A DNA stretch of 64,000 bases from Candidatus Heimdallarchaeum aukensis. Lineage in GTDB: Archaea; Asgardarchaeota; Heimdallarchaeia; Heimdallarchaeales; Heimdallarchaeaceae. Below, piece by piece: positions 8,565-55,151 of the stretch. The stretch is taken from NCBI GenBank assembly GCA_021513695.1, contig CP084166.1, positions 1,856,001 to 1,920,000 of the forward strand, written 5' to 3'. The translations under genes and the position numbers were made by a program. A model generated the notes under the pieces. That model searched no databases. It saw only the letters and a program-made list of their open reading frames with translations, and had not been told where the DNA came from. Position 1 is the stretch's first letter, and each line of letters starts with the position of its first letter.

Positions 8565-8656
8565 AAACGATTAAGCATGTCCGAATAAAAGTTTATGCTT
8601 TTGAAACGAGTAGAAAACATTTGAGTCTTCTTGAAAGAAATAGAGGATTAAAGAGA

Positions 8657-8762: not shown

Positions 8763-8903
8763 CAAAGGAAAAGTTCATTGTCTTGATTTTCATTGAAGTC
8801 AATATTTTAAGATTTCTACCTTGTTCACTTTTTAATTGATATAAGTACATTTGTGTTTCTTGATATTTTCGAACAAACAAAGATATGGTTAAAAAAAGAA
8901 AAG

Positions 8904-9518: not shown

Positions 9519-9562
9519 CGGTTTTCTGTTAGTGGTTTAGTTTAAAAGAATTTCTAAGAAGT

Positions 9563-10192
9563 CTATTTTTTAAATCGAACTAAGGTTCTTCCATTGCAAC
9601 TTGGACAACCATTTCGGAAACAGTGAATGCAATAACTTTGTCCACACTTACTACATTTGCCTATAGCCTTCTTATTACAAATAGAACATTTTTTGAAAAA
9701 CAATTTAGGATAAACTTTAAAGCCGCAATAAATTAAGACCAAAGACCCCCCGATACCAGATAAGACTATTATAAACTTAAGGAAGTTAAAGTTTCCAGAT
9801 GGAGAAGAAGTTGTTGAAGAAACACCTTCAACACCATAGATTTCAACATTCTGATAATGTAACAATTTACCAGCTAAATAACCATAGTCTGGGTCTGAAG
9901 CATCGAAACCTTCTTCTGGAGGAACATCAAAATTTCGTTTTTCACCAATTTTCATTCCAAGCATTCTGGTGTACAATCCAATAGGCTTAATGTTATTTTC
10001 ATTAAACAATATCTTTTTTGGTATAGAACTATCATAATATTCAATAGTCTTCCCATCAACAAGTAAGTGGTAACCAAATGATACTAAATCGTTATCCTGA
10101 ATTCCATTATCATAACTGTGTATTGGTGTAACAAAAATAACAGGTAAGAATAGAATAGTAAATATCAAGAGCTTATTCAGACATCTCATCAT
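9563..10192 (-). CDS. Membrane-anchored FKBP-type PPIase domain protein with a C-terminal zinc ribbon (paralog 1)
   Basis: Same architecture as the 8904..9518 gene. FKBP-like motif LVDGKTIEYYDSS...MLGMKIGEKRNFDVPPEEGF, a TM helix, then CSICNKKAIGKCSKCGQSYCIHCFRNGCPSCNG. Confidence 0.55.
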   Translation of the reverse strand: MMRCLNKLLIFTILFLPVIFVTPIHSYDNGIQDNDLVSFGYHLLVDGKTIEYYDSSIPKKILFNENNIKPIGLYTRMLGMKIGEKRNFDVPPEEGFDASDPDYGYLAGKLLHYQNVEIYGVEGVSSTTSSPSGNFNFLKFIIVLSGIGGSLVLIYCGFKVYPKLFFKKCSICNKKAIGKCSKCGQSYCIHCFRNGCPSCNGRTLVRFKK

Positions 10193-15208: not shown

Positions 15209-17983
15209 GTGAAAAAAGTGGCTAACTATCTTACAACAAGACAAATTAGTAATAAATTAAGAAAGTTGAAAGAAGAAGGAATTCCTCAGACAATTGTTGA
15301 TGAATTAAAAGAAGAATTGAAAGGAAAAAACGTAACTCAAAAACAGATGGATCTTATAATAAAAGAGATAGTTAAGAGTTATGAATTTGCGCAAATTGAC
15401 CCAGGTAGCGCAGTAGGAACAGTAGCAGCACAATCTATAGGCGAACCAGGAACACAAATGAGTATTCCAGGTAATGAGAAAGTAGTTGTAAAAATTGGAA
15501 GTAAAACAGAAATTATAGAAATCGGAGAGTTTATTGACAATTTATTAGAAAAAAATGAAGGTTATTTAATAGAAAATGAAACAGAGACAGTTGTTTATGA
15601 TCTACCAAATAATAGTGATATCTATGTTTTAGGGATAAACAATAAAGAAAAAATAGTATGGCAAAGAATTCTACAAATAAGTAGGCATTTGCCTAATGGG
15701 AGCCTATTAAGAATAAAAACAAAATCAGGTAGAACAATTACCGCTACATTTTCTCATTCGTTTGTTATACGAAAAGATAATGAGATTGTGCCAGTAAAAG
15801 GAAAAGAATTGCAGTTAGGAGACAGATTACCTATCGTCTTATCTATTCCATCTATGACGCCAATAACAGAGTTATCAGTAAGTGAATATTTACCAAAAGA
15901 GGAAATATGGCATAACCCAGATTTAGCTATAACAATACCAATCAGAGAAGAATATGGAGGAAATCGTTACAACGAACATACAACATCAATAAAACAAGAT
16001 GATTCGTATGAAATCATTAAAATAGAGAAAATTGAAGAGGAAGATTCTTTTTATCCTAGAATTTATCAAAATAATAAAGCACTCATTCCTGAGAAAATTC
16101 CTCTCACAGATGATTTTGCATGGTTTATTGGTGCATATCTAGCAGAAGGGAGTAACACTGGTACAAGAATTTCCATTTCAAATATCAACTATGATTACCT
16201 TAAAAAAGTTGGAAAGTTTGCGGAGTGGCTAAATATTTCAACAGCAACAACAAGCAAAAATGAAGAATTTGGATCTAGTTTAAGTATCCATCTTAACTCA
16301 ATGCTTCTCGCAAAGTTGATGAAAAGAATGTGTGGAAAAGGCCCAGAAACTAAATTTGTTCCAGGATGGACAATCAATACAAAAACGGAATTTATTGGAC
16401 ACTTGCTTCGAGGATTTTTCGATGGAAATGCAACTATTAGTACAGAAAAAGGTGTAATCATAGCTCGTTCTAAATCCAAAGAATTACGCGATGGAATATG
16501 TCTTTTACTATCAAGGTTAGGAATTTTTGCTAAAAAAAGTAACCAAGGAAATAGTTACATATTAACCATTCCTGGAAAATATGCGGAGATATTCCATTCA
16601 AAAATTGGTTCTGACATTGATTATAAAGAAAAATCACTGCTTCAACTTATAGAAATTGAAAAATCAAAACAAAAGACAGATGACTCTGTGGATATAATAC
16701 CAGGATTAGGAACCATCTTTGAGGATATAAAAGAAAAACTAGACTTAAGCCCACAAGTAATTTCTATTGCAAGCAACAAACAAGCCATTGGAAGACAAGC
16801 ATGTGCTCAATATATCAAAATGTTTTCTGAAATTGCTGTGAAGAAAGGAATTAATATAGATAATGAGCTTATGACCTTAAATCAAGCATATAATAGTGAC
16901 GTATTATGGGATGAAATTATAAGTTTAGAGAAAATCGATTCTCCTACACCTTATGTCTATGATTTTGGGGTTTCAGAACTTGAAACATTTATGACTGCAG
17001 AAGGAATAATAACTCATAACACCTTACAGACTTTCCATTACTCTGGTGTTGCAGAGATGTCTGTTCTTCGAGGTTTACCAAGATTAATAGAAATCGTTGA
17101 CGCTAGAAAAAATCCTAGTACTCCAACTATGAGAATTCATTTAGATAAAATAGGAGAAAAGGATGAACAAATAGCTAAACAAGTCGCTAGAAGAATTGAG
17201 TTAACTACTGTTAGCAATGTAGCAACTAGTATTAAGCACAGTTTTGCAGAAGGATGCATAAAGATCAAATTGGAACCAGTTTTACTAGAAGATAAAGGTA
17301 TTGAGCCTGAGACCATCGTCAAAAAGATCCAGAAGAAAAGAAGGCGTATTAAAGTAGAAATAGACCCCAACGATGAATATACTATTATTGTAACCCCAAC
17401 AAAAGAACTTAAGTTCAATGAATTACCAAAACTTGCAGAAAAGGTAAAGGACATACCTATTAAAGGATTAAAAAATATTACTAGAGTAGTAGTTCTTAAA
17501 AACAAACAAGGAGAGTATTATCTTCAAAGTGAAGGGAGTAATTTCAGTGAATTACTGCGAATACCGGGAGTCGATCCAACTAGATGCTATAGCAGTGACA
17601 TAAATCAAATTGCAGAAACCCTAGGGATTGAAGCAGCAAGAAATGCGCTCATACAAGAATCTTTAGCAGTTATGAAAGAACAGGGATTAGACGTAGATAA
17701 AAGACATGTTATGCTTGTTGCAGATCTTATGACATTGGTTGGAGAAGTACAGCAAATTGGACGACATGGTGTTTCAGGAAAGAAAAGCTCTGTTTTTGCT
17801 AGAGCAGCTTTTGAAGTAACCGTGAAACATTTGTTAGAAGCCGCAATCCATGGGGAACATGAACCTTTAGAAGGAATTACAGAAAATGTTATAATTGGAC
17901 AAACAATTGCATTAGGAACAGGAATTGTGGATCTTACTATGAGTCCAAATTATAGAGAGTTTGCCAAAGAAGAAGAAAACTAA
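15209..17983 (+). CDS. rpoA2: DNA-directed RNA polymerase subunit A'' (Rpo1C), intein-containing precursor
   Basis: 924 aa. The extein AAQSIGEPGTQM | TLQTFHYSGVAEMSVLRGLPRLIEI is interrupted by a 520-aa insert. The conserved C-terminal A'' sequence is present. Confidence 0.9.
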   Translation: MKKVANYLTTRQISNKLRKLKEEGIPQTIVDELKEELKGKNVTQKQMDLIIKEIVKSYEFAQIDPGSAVGTVAAQSIGEPGTQMSIPGNEKVVVKIGSKTEIIEIGEFIDNLLEKNEGYLIENETETVVYDLPNNSDIYVLGINNKEKIVWQRILQISRHLPNGSLLRIKTKSGRTITATFSHSFVIRKDNEIVPVKGKELQLGDRLPIVLSIPSMTPITELSVSEYLPKEEIWHNPDLAITIPIREEYGGNRYNEHTTSIKQDDSYEIIKIEKIEEEDSFYPRIYQNNKALIPEKIPLTDDFAWFIGAYLAEGSNTGTRISISNINYDYLKKVGKFAEWLNISTATTSKNEEFGSSLSIHLNSMLLAKLMKRMCGKGPETKFVPGWTINTKTEFIGHLLRGFFDGNATISTEKGVIIARSKSKELRDGICLLLSRLGIFAKKSNQGNSYILTIPGKYAEIFHSKIGSDIDYKEKSLLQLIEIEKSKQKTDDSVDIIPGLGTIFEDIKEKLDLSPQVISIASNKQAIGRQACAQYIKMFSEIAVKKGINIDNELMTLNQAYNSDVLWDEIISLEKIDSPTPYVYDFGVSELETFMTAEGIITHNTLQTFHYSGVAEMSVLRGLPRLIEIVDARKNPSTPTMRIHLDKIGEKDEQIAKQVARRIELTTVSNVATSIKHSFAEGCIKIKLEPVLLEDKGIEPETIVKKIQKKRRRIKVEIDPNDEYTIIVTPTKELKFNELPKLAEKVKDIPIKGLKNITRVVVLKNKQGEYYLQSEGSNFSELLRIPGVDPTRCYSSDINQIAETLGIEAARNALIQESLAVMKEQGLDVDKRHVMLVADLMTLVGEVQQIGRHGVSGKKSSVFARAAFEVTVKHLLEAAIHGEHEPLEGITENVIIGQTIALGTGIVDLTMSPNYREFAKEEEN
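15461..17020 (+). mobile_element. Intein with a LAGLIDADG homing-endonuclease domain inside rpoA''
   Basis: The insert begins with Ser right after GEPGTQM and ends ...GIITHN followed by extein Thr. It contains the LAGLIDADG-like blocks WFIGAYLAEGS and LRGFFDGNAT. Confidence 0.8.
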
Positions 17984-19274: not shown

Positions 19275-20432
19275 TTAGAGATTATAGTCAATATCTTCAT
19301 ATTCGAGATCTTCATCTTCTATTTGGTCTATATATTCTTCAGAAATTTCAATTTTTGATTGCTCTTTAAATTTATCATGTGTTTTCCATATATGAATGAT
19401 AAGTTCATCCAAGTTTTTTGTAAGTAGGTCAATGTTTATATTTTCCTTTGTAGAAATCTCAAAGTCTGTATTAAATTTAGATTTAGCTTTTTCAATTTCT
19501 TCATCAGATAATAAATCAATTTTATTTAATACACGAATAATTGGAACTTGAGGAAAGTTCGTTTTAATATCATTCAATAGATTAAGTTGTTCATCTAGTT
19601 TAAGACTAGCATTATATGATGTATCGAAGAGAATTATGATAATATCCGATATATATCGAATTGTGGAAATACTCTGAAGCTCAATTATGTTTCTTTCACC
19701 AAATGGTCTATCTAATATTCCTGGAGTATCAACAACTTGTGCCATCGTAAAAAAAAGATTACGATGGCCAAAAATGATTTTTTTTGTTGTAAAAGGATAT
19801 TCACCGATTTCTGGTTTACCTGTTGAAATAGATCTCACTAGTGAGGACTTACCAACATTTGGAGCGCCAGCAACTACTACTGATGGAATAGTCATATCAA
19901 AATCGGGAATTGTTTTAGCCTTTTTAGTCACACGAATTAAATATTTGATATCACCTTTAGCTTTTTTTACTAAAGATGCAAATCTCCCATAAGCAGATTG
20001 CCTAATTTTAGCTGTTTGTTGGGGGTGTGTTGTCTCTTTTAATTTTTTCAATTCTTCCTTTTCTATTTTCTTTATTTGTTCAGAAATTCCTTTTAATCTC
20101 CCCAAAATTTGTTTTATCTTGGCAATATCTCCAAATACTGCACAAAGAGAGATATAAAAAGGATGCATATCTTCAATCCAAGGAAATTGTGAAATAATTT
20201 TTTCTAGTTGTGTGCAAATATATGAAGATAAAGCAGAAATGCGTTTTGCCTCTAAAGCAGCTATTTTTTCCTCTCTAGATTTTCTTCTACTTCTCTTCTG
20301 CTTAAATTGAACAGCAGCTGCTTTATTAAAGCCCATTTTTAGTATTTCGTTAACTGGGGGGATATAACCTACACGTCGAAAGGGATTTCCTTGATAACGA
20401 TCATGTTGCTTTTTTCTTGACACTAAGTACAC
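19275..20432 (-). CDS. NOG1-family GTP-binding protein
   Basis: 385 aa with G1 motif GAPNVGKSS, FTTK and NKIDL motifs, and a long N-terminal helical domain typical of Nog1 GTPases. Confidence 0.7.
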   Translation of the reverse strand: MYLVSRKKQHDRYQGNPFRRVGYIPPVNEILKMGFNKAAAVQFKQKRSRRKSREEKIAALEAKRISALSSYICTQLEKIISQFPWIEDMHPFYISLCAVFGDIAKIKQILGRLKGISEQIKKIEKEELKKLKETTHPQQTAKIRQSAYGRFASLVKKAKGDIKYLIRVTKKAKTIPDFDMTIPSVVVAGAPNVGKSSLVRSISTGKPEIGEYPFTTKKIIFGHRNLFFTMAQVVDTPGILDRPFGERNIIELQSISTIRYISDIIIILFDTSYNASLKLDEQLNLLNDIKTNFPQVPIIRVLNKIDLLSDEEIEKAKSKFNTDFEISTKENINIDLLTKNLDELIIHIWKTHDKFKEQSKIEISEEYIDQIEDEDLEYEDIDYNL

Positions 20433-21722: not shown

Positions 21723-22743
21723 TGTATACTCTACCTACGTTGGTAACAAATAAATAGAAAGTGGGTTACGAGGGTAAATGATGAATTATGAACAAACCCG
21801 AACGTAACCTAGAGAGACTAAGAAAGATTGTGGTTAAAAAAGCTTTGGAAGGAGAAAAGAGAAGATAAAAAAGGTAGCTCACGACTATATGGTGAGTAGG
21901 AAGTTTGTGTATAAATGGTTAAAGAGGTTCAGAGAGAACCCTGAAGGAGAATGGTGGAAGGATAGATCTTCCAGACCAAAAACTATACACAGGAAAGTAG
22001 ATGAGGAGTTAAAAGAGAGGATAAGGGAGTTAAGAATAAAACAAGGAATGAATGTGGAGAAGATAGCTTATCTGTTGAAGAAAGAAGGAAGAGGATTATC
22101 GCGAAATACAGTAATTAAAGTAATAGGAGAGCTTGGTCTTCCTCTGTGGAGTAATAGGAAAAAGAGGAAGAGACCTCGATACAAGAGATTTGAGCGAGAA
22201 AAACCTAACGAACTCTGGCAGATAGATGTGAAAGGACCATTCTGGGTAGAAGAACAAGGATAGACAACATCTCCACCTCATAACTCTCATAGATGATCAC
22301 TCACGATTCTGTCTAGGAGCTAAACTTCACCCTTTTGCACCGAAAAAAGAGCAGATAATAAGTTTGCTAGAAGAAGCAATAGAAAAATATGGTCGCCCCG
22401 AGTCTATACTCACGGACAATGGAGCCCTCTTCTCTTCTGTTAGAGGAGGAACAAGTACCTTCTCCCGTTGGTGTCAAACAGAGGGAATAAAACACATCAG
22501 AGCTAGAGTTTTTCACCCTGAAACATGCGGAAAAGTAGAAAGACTACATGGAACCATCATCCGTGAGATGGAAAGATTAGGTCTAAAATACTGCAACTCC
22601 GACCTCTCTTACTATCGCTCGTACTACAATTTTAGTCGTCCTCACCAGTCTCTTAACCTCCTTACTCCTGGAGAAAGATTTATGAATCACCCTTACGTTT
22701 CTCTAGTGCCCAAAAGTGTAACCCATGTCTATTGAGTGAACAC
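21723..22743 (+). mobile_element. Degenerate IS481-family insertion element (~1.0 kb)
   Basis: Begins TGTATACTC and ends GAGTGAACACA, i.e. imperfect TGT...ACA termini. It contains a frame-disrupted DDE integrase/transposase and is flanked by 15-bp direct repeats. GC is higher than the surroundings. Confidence 0.55.
21889..22735 (+). pseudogene. IS481-family DDE transposase, disrupted by frameshifts and stops
   Basis: HTH part ...KVAHDYMVSRKFVYKWLKRF..., first Asp WQIDVKGPF, then a frame change to LIDDHSRFCLGAKLHPF..ILTDNGALFSS..CGKVERLHGTIIREM (DDE core). Upstream N-terminal codons are also interrupted. Confidence 0.65.
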
Positions 22744-28949: not shown

Positions 28950-29951
28950 TCACCCTTGTTGACTTTTCCTTGATATATAAGTTATCTGTGGCTCTTTTTC
29001 TTGCTGCGGAGTTTTTCTCATGGGTTTTCTCAAAAATACTGTACGCTTTTTGCTTCCAGGAATTGAACCTTTAACTAAAACGTAGTTATTTTTTACCAGC
29101 CCATAATTTACAAATCCGCCATCAGGAATAATTTCTTTACCATCAGAACCTATTTGCATAATTCTTTTGTTGTATTCTGTACGAGTATGAAAACCCATTT
29201 GACCATGTCGGGGAACAGTCCACATTGTTCGTGCTGGGTGCCAGGGGCCTATTGAACCAACACCACGTTTTGTTCCTTTAGATTTGTGTTGTAGTATTTT
29301 GATTCCATGTCTTTTAACAGGTCCTTGGAAACCTTTTCCTTTTGTAACAGCAATTACATCGGCAAACTCTCCAGCTTTGAACACATCACGTATCATTACT
29401 TCCTTGCCTAATAGAGATAATCCATATTCGAATCCTTCAGAGGGACTATTACAACCGATTTTTATTTCGGCAATAGAGGGGGTTTTTGTACCTATCCCAG
29501 TCAAGTATGGTTGTGTATGTACAATGGCTCTGATCTCCACCATTTCGGGGAGCTTTTCTTCAAAGTTCTTTTTTGCTTTCTCAAAATCGTATTTTTTAGG
29601 GGTTTTAACACGCCGACGTAATTCTTCCTTATATTCAGAAGAGAAGAGATCAGCTGAAATACTAAGACCATATGGAGTCTTAGCGTAGCCGCGGAGACCA
29701 TAAACAACAATTGGTGGGGTCTCAATAACAGTGCAAGCTACTGTTACCTCGCGGTTCGCCAGATGACTTTGCCGGCGATCCTCTATATACGATAGTTGGC
29801 TCATTCCCGCTTTGATACCTAAGAAACCAAGCAACTTTGGCTGCCCGTTATATTCTGGCCAAGCTCTTGGTTTAGGAGTAAGCCTTGCGGCCCTATTCCT
29901 TCTGTATCCAAGCGATGAGCGACGAGGTGCATGGCTTGTTCTACTTCCCAT
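28950..29951 (-). CDS. rpl3: 50S ribosomal protein L3 (uL3)
   Basis: 333 aa starting MGSRTSHAPRRSSLGYRRNRAARL, the archaeal uL3 N-terminus. The 5' two-thirds (29288-29951) lies inside tandem-duplication copy 1. Confidence 0.9.
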   Translation of the reverse strand: MGSRTSHAPRRSSLGYRRNRAARLTPKPRAWPEYNGQPKLLGFLGIKAGMSQLSYIEDRRQSHLANREVTVACTVIETPPIVVYGLRGYAKTPYGLSISADLFSSEYKEELRRRVKTPKKYDFEKAKKNFEEKLPEMVEIRAIVHTQPYLTGIGTKTPSIAEIKIGCNSPSEGFEYGLSLLGKEVMIRDVFKAGEFADVIAVTKGKGFQGPVKRHGIKILQHKSKGTKRGVGSIGPWHPARTMWTVPRHGQMGFHTRTEYNKRIMQIGSDGKEIIPDGGFVNYGLVKNNYVLVKGSIPGSKKRTVFLRKPMRKTPQQEKEPQITYISRKSQQG

Positions 29952-31473
29952 GTTATCTCACATCTTTATTTTTATTTTTTATACCATAAAACCAGTTTGT
30001 TATTTTTAATGTACAAACTGGTATCTTATGCTTGTATTCCGAAAATCATTTTGCTCATATAAAGATGTTGTTTTGCGTTTTTTATAATACAGCTAGAAAA
30101 CTAGACTTTACTAAAATAACGTTTTAAAGGACTTCCACAATCTGGACAATGAACCAGTTTTTTTGTGAATTTAGCTCCACACACAGTACATTTCCAGAAA
30201 TACTTTTTCTTTTTTGTAATTTTAAAGAAAGAAGATTCTACTCTAATATTAAATATCTTACATAAATTTTGAATAGCATTATCATCTGAAATGATAGTGA
30301 ACTCTGGGTTTTCTATTGCAAGAGCTATAATAGTAAGATCATAACTCGATAATCGTCCATATTCACCAGCTTGCTTAGCTAGATTAACTGCTTTAGAAAA
30401 GGAAGAAGATGAAGGGATGAGAAAAAGAATGTTTTGTTTATTCTCAAGAAGACTTAAAACTAAATTGCTTTCAAATGATTTTAATTCCTCAGTGATATTA
30501 GCGGGAATTATAACAACACAATCGTCTGTTAAGAACCAATCTTTTGCCAAGATTTGGATTACAACCGTAGAGTCTAGTATTAATTTTTTTGGAAAATTTT
30601 TAGGTAAATGTCGCTCTTGAACCAATTAATTCACCGAATACGTTCCAACAACTTATTTCGAACACGTTTTATATAATTATCAGAGAATCTAATAAATCTA
30701 ATTTTTTCTCCAGATTTGTAAATCTTTACATGTTCATTGTATCCTAACGTGTAGTGAGCCTGTCCATCAACAACAACGATGCCTGTTCTGAATTTAGCCT
30801 CGTTAGTAACTGTTACTACCGTATCAGTTGAAAAAACAATAGGAGAAACATTTACAATAAAGGGACAGATTGGAACAAGGCAAAAAGCTTCTACATTAGG
30901 CATAATCAAAGGTCCTCCAGCTGACCTTGCATATGCGCTAGAACCTGCACTTGTAGAAACGATTACACCATCACCTTCAATAACATAAAATAATTTGTCA
31001 TTAATTTCAACCTTTAACCTCATAATGTTTCCATGATTCTTTGGAACAATAGTTATATCATTAACTGCTGAAATAGGGGGATAAGACTCTGATGAGACAG
31101 CTACTGTTGAAAACTCTTCTATTATAAATTCATCATTCAATATTTTATTGATTGCCCAATCTAACTTTTGTGGAATTATCTCAGTAAGAAAACCTACACG
31201 ACCACAATTAACTCCCAAAATAGGAGATTCTTTCCATTGAGTAAAAGTTTTCAGGATTGTCCCATCTCCTCCAAAAACAATGACTAGATCGGGTTGTTGT
31301 CCTTGTATAATGAAATCAGATTTCCGTAAATTTTTAGCTAAAACTTGACTTAGAGCAACCTTATAACCCTTTTCTAATAACATAGAAAGCGCTTCTGATG
31401 CAGAAATCAAAGCACTTTCTTTTTCTGATGAAACTAGAAGTATTAAAGAATCTTTTGTCAGCAATGCCCTTCT
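29288..31473. repeat. Tandem duplication, copy 1 (2186 bp)
   Basis: The sequence 29288-31473 recurs at 31474-33658 with near-perfect identity. One 1-bp indel was seen (tcgctcttg at ~30611 versus tcctcttg at ~32797). Confidence 0.9.
30101..30625 (-). CDS. nob1: Nob1-like PIN-domain endonuclease with a C-terminal zinc ribbon (rRNA maturation), copy 1
   Basis: 174 aa. PIN-like N-terminus (KLILDSTVVIQ...DD...) and terminal CTVCGAKFTKKLVHCPDCGS zinc ribbon. Size and architecture match archaeal Nob1. Confidence 0.55.
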   Translation of the reverse strand: MVQERHLPKNFPKKLILDSTVVIQILAKDWFLTDDCVVIIPANITEELKSFESNLVLSLLENKQNILFLIPSSSSFSKAVNLAKQAGEYGRLSSYDLTIIALAIENPEFTIISDDNAIQNLCKIFNIRVESSFFKITKKKKYFWKCTVCGAKFTKKLVHCPDCGSPLKRYFSKV

Positions 31474-31539
31474 GTTGTAGTATTTTGATTCCATGTCTTT
31501 TAACAGGTCCTTGGAAACCTTTTCCTTTTGTAACAGCAA
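30631..31539 (-). CDS. nadK: NAD kinase (NadK/PpnK), copy 1; the N-terminal 25 codons extend into duplicated rpl3-antisense sequence
   Basis: 302-aa ORF with the GGDGT motif (VIVFGGDGTILKT). By alignment with copy 2, the ancestral start is probably the TTG at 31464. Confidence 0.7.
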   Translation of the reverse strand: MLLQKEKVSKDLLKDMESKYYNRRALLTKDSLILLVSSEKESALISASEALSMLLEKGYKVALSQVLAKNLRKSDFIIQGQQPDLVIVFGGDGTILKTFTQWKESPILGVNCGRVGFLTEIIPQKLDWAINKILNDEFIIEEFSTVAVSSESYPPISAVNDITIVPKNHGNIMRLKVEINDKLFYVIEGDGVIVSTSAGSSAYARSAGGPLIMPNVEAFCLVPICPFIVNVSPIVFSTDTVVTVTNEAKFRTGIVVVDGQAHYTLGYNEHVKIYKSGEKIRFIRFSDNYIKRVRNKLLERIR

Positions 31540-32137
31540 TTACATCGGCAAACTCTCCAGCTTTGAACACATCACGTATCATTACTTCCTTGCCTAATAG
31601 AGATAATCCATATTCGAATCCTTCAGAGGGACTATTACAACCGATTTTTATTTCGGCAATAGAGGGGGTTTTTGTACCTATCCCAGTCAAGTATGGTTGT
31701 GTATGTACAATGGCTCTGATCTCCACCATTTCGGGGAGCTTTTCTTCAAAGTTCTTTTTTGCTTTCTCAAAATCGTATTTTTTAGGGGTTTTAACACGCC
31801 GACGTAATTCTTCCTTATATTCAGAAGAGAAGAGATCAGCTGAAATACTAAGACCATATGGAGTCTTAGCGTAGCCGCGGAGACCATAAACAACAATTGG
31901 TGGGGTCTCAATAACAGTGCAAGCTACTGTTACCTCGCGGTTCGCCAGATGACTTTGCCGGCGATCCTCTATATACGATAGTTGGCTCATTCCCGCTTTG
32001 ATACCTAAGAAACCAAGCAACTTTGGCTGCCCGTTATATTCTGGCCAAGCTCTTGGTTTAGGAGTAAGCCTTGCGGCCCTATTCCTTCTGTATCCAAGCG
32101 ATGAGCGACGAGGTGCATGGCTTGTTCTACTTCCCAT
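31474..32137 (-). pseudogene. Truncated duplicate of rpl3 (5' 664 bp only)
   Basis: Identical to rpl3 codons 1-221 (MGSRTSHAPRR...HGIKILQ). It then runs into unrelated sequence at the duplication junction 31473/31474. The track ORF 31361..32137 is this chimera. Confidence 0.8.
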
Positions 32138-32286
32138 GTTATCTCACATCTTTATTTTTATTTTTTATACCATAAAACCAGTTTGTTATTTTTAATGTAC
32201 AAACTGGTATCTTATGCTTGTATTCCGAAAATCATTTTGCTCATATAAAGATGTTGTTTTGCGTTTTTTATAATACAGCTAGAAAA

Positions 32287-32850
32287 CTAGACTTTACTAA
32301 AATAACGTTTTAAAGGACTTCCACAATCTGGACAATGAACCAGTTTTTTTGTGAATTTAGCTCCACACACAGTACATTTCCAGAAATACTTTTTCTTTTT
32401 TGTAATTTTAAAGAAAGAAGATTCTACTCTAATATTAAATATCTTACATAAATTTTGAATAGCATTATCATCTGAAATGATAGTGAACTCTGGGTTTTCT
32501 ATTGCAAGAGCTATAATAGTAAGATCATAACTCGATAATCGTCCATATTCACCAGCTTGCTTAGCTAGATTAACTGCTTTAGAAAAGGAAGAAGATGAAG
32601 GGATGAGAAAAAGAATGTTTTGTTTATTCTCAAGAAGACTTAAAACTAAATTGCTTTCAAATGATTTTAATTCCTCAGTGATATTAGCGGGAATTATAAC
32701 AACACAATCGTCTGTTAAGAACCAATCTTTTGCCAAGATTTGGATTACAACCGTAGAGTCTAGTATTAATTTTTTTGGAAAATTTTTAGGTAAATGTCCT
32801 CTTGAACCAATTAATTCACCGAATACGTTCCAACAACTTATTTCGAACAC
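32287..32850 (-). CDS. nob1: Nob1-like PIN/zinc-ribbon endonuclease, copy 2 (N-terminus altered by a 1-bp indel)
   Basis: 187-aa ORF identical to copy 1 from HLPKNFPKK onward. The upstream frame differs because of the single-base difference between the repeat copies. Confidence 0.5.
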   Translation of the reverse strand: MFEISCWNVFGELIGSRGHLPKNFPKKLILDSTVVIQILAKDWFLTDDCVVIIPANITEELKSFESNLVLSLLENKQNILFLIPSSSSFSKAVNLAKQAGEYGRLSSYDLTIIALAIENPEFTIISDDNAIQNLCKIFNIRVESSFFKITKKKKYFWKCTVCGAKFTKKLVHCPDCGSPLKRYFSKV

Positions 32851-33649
32851 GTTTTATATAATTATCAGAGAATCTAATAAATCTAATTTTTTCTCCAGAT
32901 TTGTAAATCTTTACATGTTCATTGTATCCTAACGTGTAGTGAGCCTGTCCATCAACAACAACGATGCCTGTTCTGAATTTAGCCTCGTTAGTAACTGTTA
33001 CTACCGTATCAGTTGAAAAAACAATAGGAGAAACATTTACAATAAAGGGACAGATTGGAACAAGGCAAAAAGCTTCTACATTAGGCATAATCAAAGGTCC
33101 TCCAGCTGACCTTGCATATGCGCTAGAACCTGCACTTGTAGAAACGATTACACCATCACCTTCAATAACATAAAATAATTTGTCATTAATTTCAACCTTT
33201 AACCTCATAATGTTTCCATGATTCTTTGGAACAATAGTTATATCATTAACTGCTGAAATAGGGGGATAAGACTCTGATGAGACAGCTACTGTTGAAAACT
33301 CTTCTATTATAAATTCATCATTCAATATTTTATTGATTGCCCAATCTAACTTTTGTGGAATTATCTCAGTAAGAAAACCTACACGACCACAATTAACTCC
33401 CAAAATAGGAGATTCTTTCCATTGAGTAAAAGTTTTCAGGATTGTCCCATCTCCTCCAAAAACAATGACTAGATCGGGTTGTTGTCCTTGTATAATGAAA
33501 TCAGATTTCCGTAAATTTTTAGCTAAAACTTGACTTAGAGCAACCTTATAACCCTTTTCTAATAACATAGAAAGCGCTTCTGATGCAGAAATCAAAGCAC
33601 TTTCTTTTTCTGATGAAACTAGAAGTATTAAAGAATCTTTTGTCAGCAA
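32816..33649 (-). CDS. nadK: NAD kinase (NadK/PpnK), copy 2; no in-frame ATG, candidate TTG start
   Basis: 277-aa ORF identical to copy 1 from LTKDSLILLV onward. An upstream in-frame stop at 33677-33679 leaves only the TTG at 33649 as a start. Confidence 0.65.
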   Translation of the reverse strand: MLTKDSLILLVSSEKESALISASEALSMLLEKGYKVALSQVLAKNLRKSDFIIQGQQPDLVIVFGGDGTILKTFTQWKESPILGVNCGRVGFLTEIIPQKLDWAINKILNDEFIIEEFSTVAVSSESYPPISAVNDITIVPKNHGNIMRLKVEINDKLFYVIEGDGVIVSTSAGSSAYARSAGGPLIMPNVEAFCLVPICPFIVNVSPIVFSTDTVVTVTNEAKFRTGIVVVDGQAHYTLGYNEHVKIYKSGEKIRFIRFSDNYIKRVRNKLLERIR

Positions 33650-33876
33650 TGCCCTTCTAAAGAAAATAAGAATTATCTAATAAAAATATTGGGTTGGAAA
33701 TAAATTATTATAATTAAGTATTAATAAAGCACCTAATCTCAGAAAATTCAAATAAAGTATCCTTTAATTTTTATTGAGTACTATAACAAACTCTTACTAT
33801 TTATTCAAGACACATAATAATTTTCTTCAACAAGATATAGTTTTAAAAAGTATTAGTACTAAAAAGAATTGATAGA

Positions 33877-41139: not shown

Positions 41140-41442
41140 ATGAAAGAAAAATTAATGCTAGAAATTAATGAATTTCAACAACTTATGAAAGACGTTTACT
41201 TAAAAAGAGATCAACAACAAGGGCTTGAAAGAACATTTATTCATCTAATTGAAGAAATAGGAGAACTAGCTGAATGCCTTAACTCAAGGGACAAAAAAAT
41301 AATTCAAAGCGAAATTGCAGATATTATTGCTTGGATATTTAGCATTGCAAACCTATTAGAAATAGATGTGGAATCATCCTTATTAAATAAATATCCTAAT
41401 CAATGTCCAAGATGTAAAAGCAATCCTTGTATATGCAAGTGA
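41140..41442 (+). CDS. MazG-like nucleotide pyrophosphohydrolase domain protein, putative
   Basis: 100 aa with an EExGEL...E..D pattern (LIEEIGELAECL...SEIADIIAWIF) and a C-terminal Cys cluster. Confidence 0.45.
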   Translation: MKEKLMLEINEFQQLMKDVYLKRDQQQGLERTFIHLIEEIGELAECLNSRDKKIIQSEIADIIAWIFSIANLLEIDVESSLLNKYPNQCPRCKSNPCICK

Positions 41443-41459: not shown

Positions 41460-42023
41460 TTATCGCACTTCAATACGTTTCTTTTCAACTGCCTTTATTA
41501 ATTCACGAGCAAAAGTTTGAAATGCCTCTTCTACCTTTTCTCCAGTTTTAGCACTAGTTATGAAGAATGAATCTGTAGGTAAATCAAGTTCTTTTACTAT
41601 ATTAAGTGCTTCCTCTTCATCAACAGCAATTTGATCTTTTAGATCGGCTTTATTACCAATAACAAAAAATATTACGTCATCCTCTACCCCATTTAATCCA
41701 CGTTTCCATTCACGTATAGATTCTAACGTGTTAGGCCTTGTCAGATCAAAAACAAGAAAGCACCCTTTTGACCCACGATAAAACTTCTCTCTAACAGAAG
41801 AAAACCTTTCTTGACCCCCAATATCTGAAATCAAAAATAATACCTCGTCCTCCCCCACAAATAATTGTTTACTTAAAATGTCTACCCCAATAGTGATCAT
41901 ATACGATGATTCAAATCGATTATGGACATATCTTGAAATTAATGAACTTTTGCCTACTCCGGGATCTCCAAGTAAGACAATTTTAAATATGTATTTTTTT
42001 CCCTGAGATTTATTTAGAGTCAT
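41460..42023 (-). CDS. Ras-superfamily small GTPase, Rab-like
   Basis: 187 aa with G1 GDPGVGKSS, switch I YMITIGVD (Rab-like TIGVD), G3 DIGGQERF, G4 GNKADL and G5 TSAK. Confidence 0.75.
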   Translation of the reverse strand: MTLNKSQGKKYIFKIVLLGDPGVGKSSLISRYVHNRFESSYMITIGVDILSKQLFVGEDEVLFLISDIGGQERFSSVREKFYRGSKGCFLVFDLTRPNTLESIREWKRGLNGVEDDVIFFVIGNKADLKDQIAVDEEEALNIVKELDLPTDSFFITSAKTGEKVEEAFQTFARELIKAVEKKRIEVR

Positions 42024-42154
42024 TTTTGAACCCTTTATTGCACCTTATCTTCTTTAATATTTACAGCTTTTTATGTTTTTTTACTCATTCAATTAATTTT
42101 TTTCAATGTGTTAAAATTTTATAGAAGTAAAATTAAGGAATAATAATTAAATTA

Positions 42155-42463
42155 TTAAACAGTATTATCCCAAATGTTGAATAATTGTTTTAATGAGTGA
42201 GCTCTAATATTTTGATCTTGATATTGAAATATTCGAATTCTACCAAAAGTTTTTTCTTTTACTAAACCAATTCTTACCAGATATTCTAAATGATTAACTA
42301 CAACTCCATGATTTAACTTCACTTGTTTAGATATTGCAGATATGTTAATTTCTCCTTTCTCAGCCAAAAGTTTCAAGATTTTTACTCTCCCACGAGAAGA
42401 TAAGACCTCATCTATTGGTGGAGAACTCGTAGATTTAATACTCTGATTATTTATTTTAGCCAA
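42155..42463 (-). CDS. Winged-helix transcriptional regulator, putative
   Basis: 102 aa with a predicted HTH (RVKILKLLAEKGEINISAISKQVKLNHGVVVNHLEYLVRIGLV). Confidence 0.4.
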   Translation of the reverse strand: MAKINNQSIKSTSSPPIDEVLSSRGRVKILKLLAEKGEINISAISKQVKLNHGVVVNHLEYLVRIGLVKEKTFGRIRIFQYQDQNIRAHSLKQLFNIWDNTV

Positions 42464-43682
42464 CCTCCTTTTTTTGACTTACTTCACCTTTGCTCTTTGT
42501 TAAAGATTTCAATATAACATCTTCAATAAATGCCAAAGGAGCATCAGGAACACTGATAAGTGTTGTTTTTCCTTTCATTCCTTTTCCTGAAAGTTTGCAG
42601 TTAATAATATCTTGTTTTGAAAGTTCATTCAAATAAGACCAAAACTGAGTATGCTTTCTGGGGTGTTCGCCATACTCTTCGCAGAGCAAGCGATATGTAC
42701 TTATAGCATCGCTTGTTGAAATATATGCATTTTTTGTATGTTTAAGTTTTCGCAAGATAGACAACAATGTCAGTTTCTCGTGAATGGAAAGAACTAACAC
42801 AACCTCCTTACGTAACTCTGGATGAATTAACGACTTTGCTTTTCTTACATGATCAGGATAAACAACAGGAGAGTTGTCGTTATCACAACAATGTCCAGCA
42901 CCCCAAAGTAGTTCAATGGCATATCGAGCATCACCAGTTTTACTTGCAATATCAGCAATAAGCCTTATTGCATCATCTGTAACTGTTTCTTTATAAAAAG
43001 CCAGTTCAGCTCTTGATCTAACAATATCAATTAAATCAGATTCAGAATATCTGTCCAACGATATGTGATTAGAGTGAAAACTACTTTGTGTACTTGTGTC
43101 AAGTAGTTTCAAGAAATTAGTATTTTTTGCGATAAAAATGTAGGAAACATATTGATCTTGTGATATTTCTCCAATTCTTAATAGAGAATATAAGATATCA
43201 GTTCCAGTACGTGTGACTAAGTAATCAATTTCATCAAGAACTATCAGCAGCTTATATTTATTCTGCTGTAAATGCTTCACAAAAAAATGCTGTAATTCTT
43301 CAACAGAATAACCTCTTTGCGGGATATTTTTGTTCAGTTTTTGTAGAAGGACATTAAATATCAAATAAGGACTTTTATAAATACGGCAATTTATATATAT
43401 AAAGTGAAAATTTTTAATTTTAACTACATTTTCTAAAATTTGACCAAATCTTTTCGCAAGTGTGGTTTTGCCAGAACCTGTTGGGCCAGTAATAGTTGCA
43501 TAACGGCTAAAATTAAGATAATTATTTGTTAAATGTTTATATTGCTTTGCCAAGAGTCTTAGCTCTTCTTCACGATGGGGGAGTAAAGGTGGAATAAAGG
43601 AAATTGATAAATAACCTTCATTTTTAATCACGGAAGGTTTTTCAGCTAATAATTTAAAATAATCTTCATCAGATGAATACAT
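42456..43682 (-). CDS. orc1: Orc1/Cdc6 replication initiation protein
   Basis: AAA+ Walker A TGPTGSGKTT, Walker B LIVLDEIDYL, LPHREEEL motif and C-terminal winged helix. The start is set at Met29 (MYSSDEDYF), which is preceded by TTTATATTTATAG. The ORF extends to 43766. Confidence 0.8.
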   Translation of the reverse strand: MYSSDEDYFKLLAEKPSVIKNEGYLSISFIPPLLPHREEELRLLAKQYKHLTNNYLNFSRYATITGPTGSGKTTLAKRFGQILENVVKIKNFHFIYINCRIYKSPYLIFNVLLQKLNKNIPQRGYSVEELQHFFVKHLQQNKYKLLIVLDEIDYLVTRTGTDILYSLLRIGEISQDQYVSYIFIAKNTNFLKLLDTSTQSSFHSNHISLDRYSESDLIDIVRSRAELAFYKETVTDDAIRLIADIASKTGDARYAIELLWGAGHCCDNDNSPVVYPDHVRKAKSLIHPELRKEVVLVLSIHEKLTLLSILRKLKHTKNAYISTSDAISTYRLLCEEYGEHPRKHTQFWSYLNELSKQDIINCKLSGKGMKGKTTLISVPDAPLAFIEDVILKSLTKSKGEVSQKKEVG

Positions 43683-43891
43683 TTTGCTTTCTATAAATAT
43701 AAATATGAACATAGTATTTATAGTTGATACAGACACCTTATTGAAAGTGAAAAAATCAATTTTCAATAGAGTAAAAAAATACCGTTTATAAGAATGGAAG
43801 ACATAAAATGTAATTTCCTAAAATAAAAAGATGGCAAAAATGATAAGAGAGAAAATATTTGAAGCTAAAAAGATATAACAATTTGATTAAT

Positions 43892-44305
43892 ATGAGTCAA
43901 GATTGTATTTTCTGTAAAATAGTTAGTGGTCAAATACCTACTTATACATTATTTGAAGACGAAAAAGTAATTGTAGTTTTAGATGCATATCCAGTTTCTT
44001 TTGGGCATGCTCTATTTATACCAAAAAAGCATTACAAAACAATTGATGATGTCCCAGAAGAAGAGATTGATTTTCTTAAGAAATTACCTAATATAGTCAA
44101 ACGAATAAGAGAAATAACAAATGCAACAGGAATAAACATATGGCAAAACAACGGAAAAGATGCAGGACAAACTATTCCACACGTCCATTTCCATATTGTA
44201 CCAAGGTACACAAATGACAACCTATTTGAGTTCCCAGCACAGAAACAACTAGAAGAAAATGAAGCGCGTGATATAGTTGAGAAATTTAAGCAAAGTGATG
44301 TATAA
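43892..44305 (+). CDS. HIT-family hydrolase
   Basis: CIFCKI N-terminus and histidine-triad HVHFHIVPR. The start is set at the internal Met (the ORF begins at 43859). Confidence 0.8.
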   Translation: MSQDCIFCKIVSGQIPTYTLFEDEKVIVVLDAYPVSFGHALFIPKKHYKTIDDVPEEEIDFLKKLPNIVKRIREITNATGINIWQNNGKDAGQTIPHVHFHIVPRYTNDNLFEFPAQKQLEENEARDIVEKFKQSDV

Positions 44306-44421: not shown

Positions 44422-47340
44422 TCATAGTTCAATGCTTAAACTTTTTCTCTTCTTATAAAATTTGATACCAATAAAACTAATAGCTGAAATAGTAAGAGAT
44501 CCTATAGCAAGAGGAATAAAGATAACTGTATTGTTAAAACTATTATTAATACCAATCAGATTAAGCAACAAATAGGTTCCCTCAGCAAGTTCAAGTCCAC
44601 TAATTTTTACATAGGAGTAAGAGATAACTATTTTGTATGTGTCGGTAATTTCCAGCCCATTTGAATTAGTGATCTTCCAATCGTAGGAACTAAGAGATGT
44701 ATTAATATTTGAATATAAGAGTATAGATGCATTTTTGTACAAATAGGAAGCATAGATTTTTAGTTGAAATTGGATTTCATTATTAGTGACATAAGACTTA
44801 ACATTCAATTGTGGACCCTTACAAATAATAACAAATTTATGTGAATATGTAGAACTATTAGCTTTAACTTGCCAATAAAAAGATGTATTATCCCATGTCA
44901 CTGGAATCATAAATAACCCCGTATCAATATAGGCATTTAGAACAGGAGGAATGCCGTCAACCATAGGTAAAAACCATCTATCATTTTGAGCGCTATATTT
45001 GATCCAATAAGAAAATGTTACATTATTACCGAGTAACAACTCATCATCAGTTTTATCAACATCGACTTTCAGAATTTGGTTAATTATTGTAAATGTTTTT
45101 ATCTTAATAATGGAAGAATATCGCATAATATGCAAAGTTACATTGATAGACAAAATATTAAGAGGAACTAAAATCTTATTTTGGAAGTATCCCATTTCAT
45201 CAGTGATACCAGATAAAGCACCACCGGAGCCAGATATATTTCCTATATAAAATTTTAAAGGAGCAAAAGCAACAGGAAAACCATCACAAGACACATTCAG
45301 ATTAATTGAATAATACTTATCATTCAAGGAAAAATAGTCTAGTACGACGTTAAGAGGGCTTTCATATGAAATGAGAGAAATAATCTTAACAACTGATGCA
45401 TGAAATGTAGAGAAAGCCATTATCTTAACAGTATGATTTCCTAAGCTTAAGTAATACATTGAAACAATAAAATCTACTTCTGTTATATTTGTGAAAGAAT
45501 ATACTTTTGTATCATCGAGAAATACATAAATTGAAGAATTTTCGATTGAAATATTATTTCCCAAGCTATGATAAGAAAGGTTGACAGATGTACTTCCATA
45601 TTGTGGCAGGGTTAAACTGTCTACAATGGCAATATCTGCCGCGTAGCGCGTTAAACTGATATTACAAGAATAATAAAAAATTGTCGAGTTAAGATTCAGA
45701 AAAATTATTGAGTACTCTCCTCTTGGAATAATAGAAGGAAAACGATATTCAAGCATGTTGTTTTGAATATCTAAAATCACCCCCCCACTTACAGGTCCAA
45801 TCCAAAAAAAGTTTGTTTTAATTGAAAGACTATTGAAAGTGAGATTAAATTCTACATTGAGGGTTTCAAATAGGATAGACGATGTGAGAACAATGCTTTT
45901 CACATTGTTTTGGATAGCAAATATTGTTACTAAGCTACTTGTATTACAAATTAACAGTTCATACTGATCAAAGTCTTCAAACTCATTGACAGAGATAAGT
46001 GTAACATATTGAGAATTATATTCAACTAGAGACCAATTTAATGGAATACCGATAACAACACCAAAAACTCCAGTGACAATATTATCAATTGAAACATTGA
46101 ATAAAATTTCATCGGGTGGGACAAGCAATAACTGTCTCTTAGAGAATAGTGATATGTTTCCAATAGCTTGTAAACTAAATTGCCCTTCAACAGTATAAGA
46201 AGAATTTAATGAAAAAATAAGATTAACATCTGTTTTTTCTTCAACATGCACTTGAATTGAAAACGAACCCTTTAGATCATCAATGCTATTAACTAAAGAT
46301 CCATTTAATTTAAGTTCAATTTCTTCAGGAATAGGTTGAGACTCTATTTTAAGATTATCAAAGAAAAATGAACTTTCAGATTGTTCTGGTGATATCACAA
46401 AGATACTAAATCCTTCTAGCTGAGAAGGAATATTTGAGGAAAATTCTGATAATATTGCTGATAAATTTAATGACAAACTATTCCAATTATCATCCCACGT
46501 TGTATTTCTTACAAATTTAAAAGTATCATAATCACCAGAAGTATCATTTTGACCTACTTGTTCCAATCCGACATTACTGTAAACCCAGTTATATATCGCT
46601 ACTCTACACGTATCAAAAGTAAAATCGAAAATTACACTGGAGTTTATAACATTTTGAATTGAAGAATTACTATCAAACTTGTAGTCATAAGAGAGAATAA
46701 TATTTCGACTAAATAATGATAAATCTTTCATATAGGTTGAATATTTTAAAGAAGTAGTATTATTTGCATAAATCTTCCACGAGTAATTACCAGACAATCC
46801 ATTACTTGTAAGATAGCGTTGTAATTCGATTCCTGTATGAACTGAATCATTAGCGTAAAAACTCTCTGCTGTTTCTGCTCCTGAATTCTGAATTATGTTA
46901 GCTTTCAAATCTGAAACATTACCCACAAGAAAAAAATCTCCTTTTTCTGGAAGTGTTATCCCTATTTCTTTATCTGAGAGGTTTAAATAATTTAGATCAC
47001 TTTTATATCGCCCATTTAATTCGATTTTCGGAGCAAAATTGGATATCGTTTTATTATAATCAACGTTAATATTTTCATCGACAGTTATCGAATTTTTCAA
47101 GTAAGTTATTGAAGAGTTAGATGACGATGTTTGTATTAATGGCTCATTTGTCTCAGAGTATACAATTTGTGCTTTAGGAAGAGATGTTTTTGTAAAAACA
47201 GAAGAAATAGAATCAGATTCTGTAAGCGCATTTAATAAAGTTGAATTCTGTATATCCAAGAAAGAAAATTGCCCTATTATAATAGTAATCATCAGCACAA
47301 TTAATAATTGCTTATTAATCGGATTAGATTTTAATTTCAT
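44422..47340 (-). CDS. Large surface/extracellular protein with N-terminal signal-anchor and C-terminal TM helix
   Basis: 972 aa. Rich in Ser/Asn/Thr, with many N-x-S/T sequons. Hydrophobic N-terminus and a C-terminal hydrophobic helix followed by a KKRK stop-transfer. Confidence 0.4.
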   Translation of the reverse strand: MKLKSNPINKQLLIVLMITIIIGQFSFLDIQNSTLLNALTESDSISSVFTKTSLPKAQIVYSETNEPLIQTSSSNSSITYLKNSITVDENINVDYNKTISNFAPKIELNGRYKSDLNYLNLSDKEIGITLPEKGDFFLVGNVSDLKANIIQNSGAETAESFYANDSVHTGIELQRYLTSNGLSGNYSWKIYANNTTSLKYSTYMKDLSLFSRNIILSYDYKFDSNSSIQNVINSSVIFDFTFDTCRVAIYNWVYSNVGLEQVGQNDTSGDYDTFKFVRNTTWDDNWNSLSLNLSAILSEFSSNIPSQLEGFSIFVISPEQSESSFFFDNLKIESQPIPEEIELKLNGSLVNSIDDLKGSFSIQVHVEEKTDVNLIFSLNSSYTVEGQFSLQAIGNISLFSKRQLLLVPPDEILFNVSIDNIVTGVFGVVIGIPLNWSLVEYNSQYVTLISVNEFEDFDQYELLICNTSSLVTIFAIQNNVKSIVLTSSILFETLNVEFNLTFNSLSIKTNFFWIGPVSGGVILDIQNNMLEYRFPSIIPRGEYSIIFLNLNSTIFYYSCNISLTRYAADIAIVDSLTLPQYGSTSVNLSYHSLGNNISIENSSIYVFLDDTKVYSFTNITEVDFIVSMYYLSLGNHTVKIMAFSTFHASVVKIISLISYESPLNVVLDYFSLNDKYYSINLNVSCDGFPVAFAPLKFYIGNISGSGGALSGITDEMGYFQNKILVPLNILSINVTLHIMRYSSIIKIKTFTIINQILKVDVDKTDDELLLGNNVTFSYWIKYSAQNDRWFLPMVDGIPPVLNAYIDTGLFMIPVTWDNTSFYWQVKANSSTYSHKFVIICKGPQLNVKSYVTNNEIQFQLKIYASYLYKNASILLYSNINTSLSSYDWKITNSNGLEITDTYKIVISYSYVKISGLELAEGTYLLLNLIGINNSFNNTVIFIPLAIGSLTISAISFIGIKFYKKRKSLSIEL

Positions 47341-55035: not shown

Positions 55036-55151
55036 GGCTCGGTAGCTCAGCAGGCTAGAGCGCAAGACTCATAATCTTGTGTTAAAGGGCTAGATATGGC
55101 TTGCGAGGAGAAATCTTGAGGTCGGGGGATCGAAACCCCCCCGAGCCACCA
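55036..55151 (+). tRNA. tRNA-Met/Ile2 (anticodon CAU) with a 39-nt anticodon-loop intron; T-loop AUCGAAA; CCA encoded
   Basis: Acceptor GGCTCGG/CCGAGCC, D arm GCTC-AGCAGGCT-AGAGC, anticodon stem CAAGA/TCTTG with loop CTCATAA. The insert is ATCTTGTGTTAAAGGGCTAGATATGGCTTGCGAGGAGAA, and TCTTG is repeated at both junctions. T arm GGGGG-ATCGAAA-CCCCC. Confidence 0.75.

Follow-up and report, generated by a model that had tools for sequence, protein, structure and literature searches.

Klinger and colleagues reportedly described groups of Asgard 'Rab-like' or RasL small GTPases in 2016. Archaeal Rab-like proteins that carry RabF motifs and have no prenylation cysteines are also known from Surkont & Pereira-Leal (2016, PMC4915359), whose phylogeny was inconclusive. 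In the 996-sequence maximum likelihood tree of Vargova et al. the Asgard RasL proteins fall in one clade with Rab, Ras, Rho and Ran, and no Asgard sequences are specifically sister to the Rabs. One Thorarchaeota protein, Thor-Rab, has been crystallized (7EZB, 7EZD and 7EZE) and has GTPase activity. Tran et al. (2024, PMC10933270) see in it a 'primordial' Rab core that lacks the C-terminal extension. In Asgard databases they detected neither REP nor RabGGTase homologues. Here we consider a small GTPase gene from Candidatus Heimdallarchaeum aukensis. It lies in a stretch of 64,000 nucleotides (contig CP084166.1, positions 1,856,001 to 1,920,000), which we call the window and whose own numbering is used throughout.

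The gene is intact and under extreme purifying selection. The motifs of its product argue strongly for a functional, stand-alone GTP/GDP switch of the RasL or Rab-like kind on the Rab/Ras/Rho/Ran branch. The GTPase is already known. An exact-sequence look-up returns the identical protein under the name 'GTP-binding protein [Candidatus Heimdallarchaeum aukensis]', and the nearest cluster representative (93% identity) is a 'Rab family GTPase [Candidatus Heimdallarchaeaceae archaeon]'. The protein has been deposited and annotated, descriptions of its class go back to 2015-2016, and crystal structures and an assay exist for a homologue. It is therefore not a new kind of object. The new details are at the level of the orthogroup only: the loss of the Rab hydrophobic triad, the extreme constraint, and an adjacency to a HIT-family gene that is broken here by an Orc1/Cdc6 gene paired with a winged helix-turn-helix (wHTH) gene. 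Eukaryotic signature proteins include the small GTPases of the Rab/Ras/Rho/Ran type, and finding them in Heimdall-group archaea is one of the arguments for a pre-eukaryotic machinery of membrane and cytoskeleton regulation. The gene described here is a clean case of a eukaryote-like small GTPase under strong constraint, and the details of its orthogroup could guide the choice of tractable Asgard GTPases for biochemistry.

Family, fold and conservation

The protein matches the Pfam family Ras (PF00071) over profile positions 1-161 of 162, with E=8.6e-44 and 149.4 bits against a cut-off of 21.6. The NCBIfam model TIGR00231 (small_GTP) also matches (E=1.7e-21, 76.7 bits, cut-off 42.5). Other Pfam families score lower. 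Roc reaches 92 bits and Arf (PF00025) 47 bits, the MMR_HSR1 match is weak and the Gtr1_RagA match sits at threshold. The top 60 distinct PDB sequences found by phmmer are all Rabs. Rab7 is the best of them (2e-34; 41% identity over 175 residues, 122 bits), and it is followed by Ypt7, Rab9, Rab11, Sec4, Rab35 and Rab8. The crystallized Thorarchaeota Rab 7EZB is within these 60 (E=2.9e-30). In a phmmer reference panel, seven Rabs score 94-122 bits. RalA, HRas, Ran and Rap1A score 72-79, Cdc42, Rheb, RhoA and Rac1 36-44, Arf1 22, Sar1 14 and Myxococcus xanthus MglA 6.3 bits. Agreement of the panel with the PDB search was confirmed for two of its sequences, Rab7A (121.6 bits) and Rab11A (111.8), whose scores are exactly the same in both.

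Structure agrees with sequence. An AlphaFold2 model made with 50 homologues has a predicted local distance difference test score (pLDDT) of 87.4 and a predicted template modelling score of 0.85. It has the six-stranded beta-sheet and five helices of the G-domain fold. Foldseek returns 1929 PDB matches to this model at E<=1e-3, and the best 50 are all Rabs with template modelling (TM) scores of 0.77-0.84. Disorder is confined to the N-terminus and switch I, and the low pLDDT of residues 36-43 fits a flexible switch I. These data support membership of the Ras superfamily, with the protein being Rab-like by similarity only. A preliminary description made from the DNA had labelled it a Rab-like, eukaryote-type Ras-superfamily protein in an Asgard-type context. 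The panel scores bear out the label, and the host is indeed a Heimdallarchaeum. The same description had named a robust MglA- or Era-like placement as grounds for dropping the label. That placement clearly fails, with MglA at 6 bits and Era under its cut-off.

The preliminary description had counted five G boxes, and the translation has them all, in their canonical order and spacing (GDPGVGKS, T44, DIGGQ at residues 67-71, NKAD and SAK). Many of their residues do not vary across 50 homologues. In G1 this is true of G19, V23, G24 and K25, and in switch I of T44 and G46. D67, G70 and F74 of switch II are invariant and Q71 is nearly so, as are N124 and K125 of G4 with D127 nearly invariant. In G5 all three residues (S157, A158, K159) are invariant. 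Switch II consists of D67-IGGQERF74 followed by Y82RG84. It had been called Rab/Ras-like, and this holds for the ERF..FYRGS stretch and for the rest of the protein, but not for the DIGGQ core. This core is common among the Asgard homologues and is nearer to the DVGGQ of Arf than to the DTAGQ of Rabs.

Species-representative genomes were scanned for the gene. Ca. Heimdallarchaeum endolithica PR6, whose chromosome is closed, has a copy with 99% protein identity. Orthologues at 73-79% identity are found in 17 further Heimdall-group genomes (18 genomes with PR6), with one orthologue per genome locus across those sampled. The PR6 locus is collinear with the window from 35.2 to 47.8 kb at 82-93% nucleotide identity. 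The GTPase gene itself is 93% identical in nucleotides to its PR6 orthologue, and their 40 nucleotide differences comprise 39 synonymous changes and 1 non-synonymous change (T150I). The synonymous rate (dS) is 0.42, the non-synonymous rate (dN) is 0.0023 and dN/dS is 0.005. This implies the gene is functional. Its 99% is the highest protein identity to PR6 across the locus. The small subunit of RFC is at 98% and Orc1/Cdc6 at 97%, and MazG (84%), HIT (82%) and a 972-aa surface-type protein (75%) are less conserved.

Rab hallmarks and the position of the protein

The RabF motifs were compared with the consensus of Pereira-Leal & Seabra, which is established knowledge and is also found in Surkont & Pereira-Leal (PMC4915359). 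RabF1, RabF4 and RabF5 are near the Rab consensus and nearest to Rab7. RabF3 is kept in part, and almost nothing is left of RabF2. RabF1 reads IGVDI and agrees at 4 of 5 positions with IGVDF, to which switch I had been likened in the preliminary description. RabF4 (FYRGS) has 3 of 5 positions of the consensus YYRGA and 4 of 5 of Rab7, while RabF5 (LVFDLT) has 4 of 6 of the consensus LVYDIT and 5 of 6 of Rab7. RabF3 (RFSSVR) keeps 3 of 6 relative to RFRSIT. RabF2 (LFLIS) keeps 1 of 5 relative to KLQIW, and its tryptophan is lost. This Trp, which belongs to 'IWDTAGQ', is Ser66 in our protein, where the segment reads ISDIGGQ. It is retained in 23 of 27 more distant Asgard homologues and is absent also from the near paralogues, which are 49-54% identical to the orthogroup. 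The hydrophobic triad of Rabs (Phe, Trp and Tyr in switch I, interswitch and switch II) serves to recognize effectors, and its positions are I49/S66/F81 in all 19 orthologues. Seven eukaryotic Rab references have F/W/Y(F) there.

The C-terminus reads KAVEKKRIEVR and the sole cysteine, C88, is internal. A prenylatable cysteine (CC, CxC or CCxx) was sought at the C-terminus, and none of the 19 orthologues has a Cys in its last six residues. C-terminal geranylgeranylation of this GTPase is therefore impossible. An amphipathic N-terminal helix was also looked for and none was found (hydrophobic moment 0.18). The end of the C-terminal helix is mildly basic, and this is the only feature that resembles a membrane anchor. 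Pfam scans of the window found no REP, GDI or RabGGTase genes. The P-loop has Pro21 at the position of Ras Gly12. Proline is known as the one non-activating substitution at Gly12 in Ras, so Pro21 should not inactivate the GTPase.

How does this compare with the described families? With the other Asgard Rab-like and RasL proteins it shares an Asgard host, a stand-alone G domain of ~180 aa with all G boxes, a highest similarity to Rabs, a short C-terminus without cysteine and a DIGGQ-type G3 as in many Asgard homologues. It differs from them in having no RabF2 Trp, an invariant I/S/F triad and a proline at the Ras Gly12 position. By its scores and Pfam ranking it is closer to the Rab/Ras/Rho/Ran branch than to Arf/ArfR, Rag/Gtr or MglA, as a RasL protein should be. 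Rab7/Ypt7 (also Rab9 and Rab11) has the same fold (TM about 0.8), and the RabF4 (FYRG) and RabF5 (LVFD.T) motifs of our protein are Rab7-like. However, the hypervariable C-terminal tail and the CxC/CC motif of Rab7 are missing here, and its Trp and triad are replaced. Ras, Ral, Rap and Ran belong to the same superfamily branch at ~30% identity, but they score lower than every Rab tested. The GTPase has neither the Ras effector loop YDPTIED nor the C-terminal DEDDDL tail of Ran.

Neighbour-joining trees were built from Kimura distances with 100-200 bootstraps and with references from the Rab, Ran, Ras, Rho, Arf/Sar and MglA families. The Asgard sequences and eukaryotic Rabs group together with Ran as their sister, and Ras/Rho, Arf/Sar and MglA fall outside. 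The Asgard+Rab split has a bootstrap of 10/100. Over 200 replicates the first reference family that the query joined was Rab alone in 91 and a mixture with Rab in 100. Ran alone was the first partner in 6, Ras alone in 2, Arf in 1 and MglA in 0. The phylogeny that had been proposed as a check on the label gives MglA and Arf almost no support, but it does not separate Rab from Ras, Ran and Rho. This weak placement agrees with the published position of RasL at the base of Rab/Ras/Rho/Ran.

One can imagine that the protein is a true Rab, which would already specify membrane identity and would be an orthologue or sister of the eukaryotic Rabs, such as a Rab7-like ancestor. Rab7 is its best match, every top structural match is a Rab, three RabF motifs are mostly kept, Rabs alone are the first partner in nearly half of the replicates and NCBI names the cluster representative a Rab. 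Against this, no orthologue has the C-terminal cysteine, and all of them have I/S/F for F/W/Y, with Ser in place of the RabF2 Trp. The Asgard+Rab clade was recovered in a tenth of bootstraps, the tree of Vargova et al. has no Asgard sister of the Rabs, and phylogeny was also inconclusive for Surkont & Pereira-Leal. Thor-Rab is not membrane-localised in HeLa cells (Tran et al., PMC10933270). We therefore consider a true Rab unlikely. Nothing here demonstrates that it belongs to the Rab family proper, and it lacks two of the defining features, the triad and the prenylation cysteine.

It is harder still to place the protein in a typically prokaryotic family (MglA, Rup, ArfR/ArfL, Rag/Gtr or Era-like) and to treat its likeness to Rabs as superficial. 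This would account for a G3 core that is like the DVGGQ of Arf and for the weak Pfam matches to Arf, Gtr1_RagA and MMR_HSR1. Yet DIGGQ is the only Arf-like feature. The Arf profile scores less than a third of what Ras does, Arf1, Sar1 and MglA are all far below the Rabs, and there is no N-terminal amphipathic helix. The NCBIfam profiles for Era, Der and Obg score far under their cut-offs, and Gtr1_RagA is at threshold only. MglA was never the first partner in the trees and Arf was once. MglA is likewise a small G-domain switch that occurs in prokaryotes, but it has TVPGQ as G3, no SAK and a roadblock partner, MglB. Our protein has DxxGQ and SAK, and Pfam scans of the window found no roadblock (Robl_LC7) gene. 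The comparison drew on MglA, Arf/Sar, Gtr1_RagA and Era-like references, and with that coverage we find such a placement very improbable. Least credible of all are the ideas that the gene came from a eukaryote, as contamination or by recent transfer, or that it is a pseudogene in decay. The sole point in their favour is the high similarity to eukaryotic Rabs. The local GC content of ~30% is the same as in the remainder of the window, and the best 120 database relatives are all Asgard or unlabelled and unclassified metagenomic proteins. The synteny of the gene is kept in a closed Heimdallarchaeum chromosome as well as in 17 further Heimdall genomes. Synteny of this kind and a dN/dS of 0.005 already refute a contaminant or pseudogene.

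We argue that the gene encodes a binary GTP/GDP switch, either soluble or recruited by partners. This mechanism is based on motif conservation and on the established mechanism of the Ras superfamily. Lys25 and Ser26 of the P-loop together with Thr44 of switch I would hold Mg-GTP, and NKAD and SAK would select guanine. Gln71 would position and orient the attacking hydrolytic water. Both switch regions would change shape with the nucleotide state so that partner proteins are bound or released, and the effector surface presumably differs from that of Rabs. Because a prenylation site, an N-terminal amphipathic helix and the Rab triad are all missing, anchoring and readout in the style of eukaryotic Rabs are impossible. 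Without Rab-type anchoring, localisation must depend on protein partners. We infer from this a GTPase that cycles, is not anchored by a lipid and acts through partners.

It must be noted that several points weigh against this switch. Its mechanism is read from conserved motifs alone. Pro21 is unusual for a Rab, as is DIGGQ instead of DTAGQ, and both the kinetics and the mode of action of a GTPase-activating protein (GAP) may differ. No gene for a guanine nucleotide exchange factor, GAP, roadblock or longin protein lies nearby in the 64-kb window, and no partner proteins are encoded beside the gene there. The low bootstrap of the Asgard+Rab split also counts against it as far as its deep position is concerned.

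Neighbouring genes and the HIT adjacency

The features of the gene and its surroundings are collected in Table 1. The preliminary description had placed it between a MazG gene and a winged-helix/Orc1 pair, and Pfam finds all of these at the flanks that it gave.

Table 1. Features of the small GTPase gene and its neighbours in the window.
Feature	Positions	Strand	Basis	Remarks
Small GTPase coding sequence, 187 aa, ATG to stop	41460..42023	minus	open reading frame (ORF) reading	stop codon 41460-41462
G1/P-loop GDPGVGKS, residues 19-26	41946..41969	minus	translation	Pro at Ras Gly12 position
Switch I/G2 YMITIGVD, residues 41-48	41880..41903	minus		RabF1-like; T44 is the Mg2+/gamma-phosphate Thr
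G3/switch II DIGGQERFSSVREKFYRG, residues 67-84	41772..41825	minus		catalytic Gln71; RabF3- and RabF4-like stretches
G4 NKAD, residues 124-127	41643..41654	minus		guanine specificity
G5 SAK, residues 157-159	41547..41555	minus		
AT-rich upstream spacer, 131 bp	42024..42154	minus	sequence	putative own promoter and ribosome-binding site (RBS)
MazG	41140-41442	plus	Pfam	
ArsR-type wHTH	42155-42463	minus	Pfam	
Orc1/Cdc6	42456-43766	minus	Pfam	
wHTH + Orc1/Cdc6 pair between GTPase and HIT	42155..43766	minus	Pfam	context, outside the GTPase unit
HIT-family (Hint-like) gene	43859..44305	plus	Pfam HIT, E=5.9e-22	displaced 1.8 kb and inverted

A TATA-like sequence, AAATATTAAA, lies ~30-40 nt ahead of the ATG of the GTPase gene, and a purine-rich AAAGGG stands just upstream of it. 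The spacers of the orthologues have a conserved TATA-like AAAACTTAATAA and a purine-rich AAGGGGAAAA at similar distances from the start codon. These elements suggest that the GTPase has its own promoter.

A check for further small GTPases and for longin or roadblock proteins had also been proposed. Run on the 64-kb window, it found none. When every six-frame ORF of 60 aa or more in the window was searched by phmmer with the GTPase, the query matched itself only, and Pfam scans of ~57 window ORFs found no roadblock, longin, TRAPP or other partner genes. The only other GTPase in the window is of the NOG1 ribosome-biogenesis type (19275-20432). For the more distant paralogues in other genomes, another small-GTPase gene is frequently found 1-3 kb away (L009 4532-5056, L028 5214-5708, L033 7357-8522). 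At another locus (L032) a Robl_LC7 (roadblock) gene lies 2 kb from a distant paralogue. The orthogroup studied here has neither a roadblock nor a second GTPase beside it.

The Orc1/Cdc6 and wHTH pair stands between HIT and the GTPase in the window and in PR6 only, and it is absent from the other 25 orthologue loci. It may mark a replication origin or be a captured cassette. The cumulative GC skew of the window has its minimum at ~42-44 kb, but it largely tracks gene strand. No cluster of repeats resembling origin recognition boxes was found beside Orc1/Cdc6 in 40.7-44.4 kb. The annotated TTG start of Orc1 seems to be too far upstream, and Met29 (about 43682) is a more plausible start.

Outside the genus there are 25 orthologue loci, and in each of them the HIT gene is directly upstream of the GTPase gene, on the same strand, with a spacer of 18-72 bp. 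This makes HIT the ancestral immediate upstream neighbour of the orthogroup; a functional link between the two is conjectural. Most of the 25 loci share a longer block that runs amidohydrolase, (GHMP kinase), HIT, GTPase, two paralogous genes of ~200 aa and an RNase E/G-like gene. The pair is kept where the upstream neighbour changes, which is a GHMP kinase or, in three loci (L002, L017 and L021), an Fe-repressor. It is also kept where the downstream neighbour changes to ribosomal protein L3 (L001), tetrahydrofolate dehydrogenase (L002) or the h209/h204 genes.

It is worth considering whether the GTPase and the upstream Hint-like nucleotide hydrolase form a functional two-gene module. The constant order and short spacer argue for this, as does the persistence of the pair while its outer neighbours change. 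However, the longer block is common to most of the loci, so the adjacency may be plain inheritance. The spacer has TATA-like and RBS-like elements of its own, which suggest separate transcription. In Heimdallarchaeum the pair is split and divergent, and selection on the GTPase has no sign of relaxation. The HIT protein is also far less conserved than its neighbour. The linkage is missing at four more distant paralogues (P0034, P0036, P0041, P0085), and Tyr77, where Rab1 is AMPylated, corresponds to Phe81 of our GTPase. Inherited synteny is a simpler explanation of these facts than functional coupling, and we regard the module as doubtful. We are similarly sceptical of a fuller scenario, in which an ultra-conserved switch encoded at a single locus across the Heimdallarchaeaceae, with a remodelled I/S/F effector face, acts with the adjacent Hint-type HIT hydrolase. 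If this were true, a GTPase would be paired with a HIT enzyme in a way that has not been described before, for instance in a nucleotide-linked modification or in nucleotide sensing.

The window has its own copy of the downstream block. Two paralogous genes of ~205 aa, with weak matches to FKBP_C and to a B-box zinc finger, are followed by the RNase E/G-like gene (7101-10192, minus strand). In most Heimdall genomes (L004-L027) this block follows the GTPase gene directly, but in the window the two are 31 kb apart, with the block at 7.1-10.2 kb. The NOG1-aminoacyl-tRNA synthetase-PFK block is also inverted relative to L001. Together these suggest extensive local rearrangement in the genus.

Other features of the window

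The 972-aa protein (44422-47340, minus strand) has no Pfam match. It has an N-terminal hydrophobic segment and a C-terminal segment that resembles a transmembrane helix, and N-x-S/T sequons are very numerous in it. A surface glycoprotein is its probable identity. No other protein of the locus evolves as fast: its identity to PR6 is 75%, and that of its neighbours is 92-99%.

A unit of 2,186 bp is tandemly duplicated at 29284-31469 and 31470-33655, and the two copies are 99.9% identical. The unit holds the 5' two-thirds of the ribosomal protein L3 gene, a PIN_6 ribonuclease and a NAD kinase, and the second L3 ORF is truncated (31361-32137). The duplication is either a very recent event or an assembly artefact. 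Two short ORFs with HTH_32 and rve_3 integrase-core domains (21889-22735, plus strand) look like a split insertion sequence transposase. They separate the gene for Tyr/Trp-tRNA synthetase from that for ADP-dependent kinase. In the related locus L001 these two genes are immediate neighbours.

The gene for RNA polymerase A'' (Rpb1 domain 5; 15209-17983, plus strand) is interrupted by an intein with a LAGLIDADG homing endonuclease, and its Intein_splicing match covers residues 122-604. Inside the ribosomal-protein and RNA-polymerase cluster there is a TnpB/Cas12f-like gene with a Cas12f1-like TNB domain (2288-3742, minus strand). A tRNA of 101 nt adjoins it (3922-4022, minus strand) and probably contains an intron. 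Two other tRNA predictions are over-long, at 8668-8763 (minus strand, 96 nt) and 55036-55148 (plus strand, 113 nt). One of them is an ARAGORN 'tRNA-???' with a 4-base anticodon, and both are consistent with intron-containing archaeal tRNAs.

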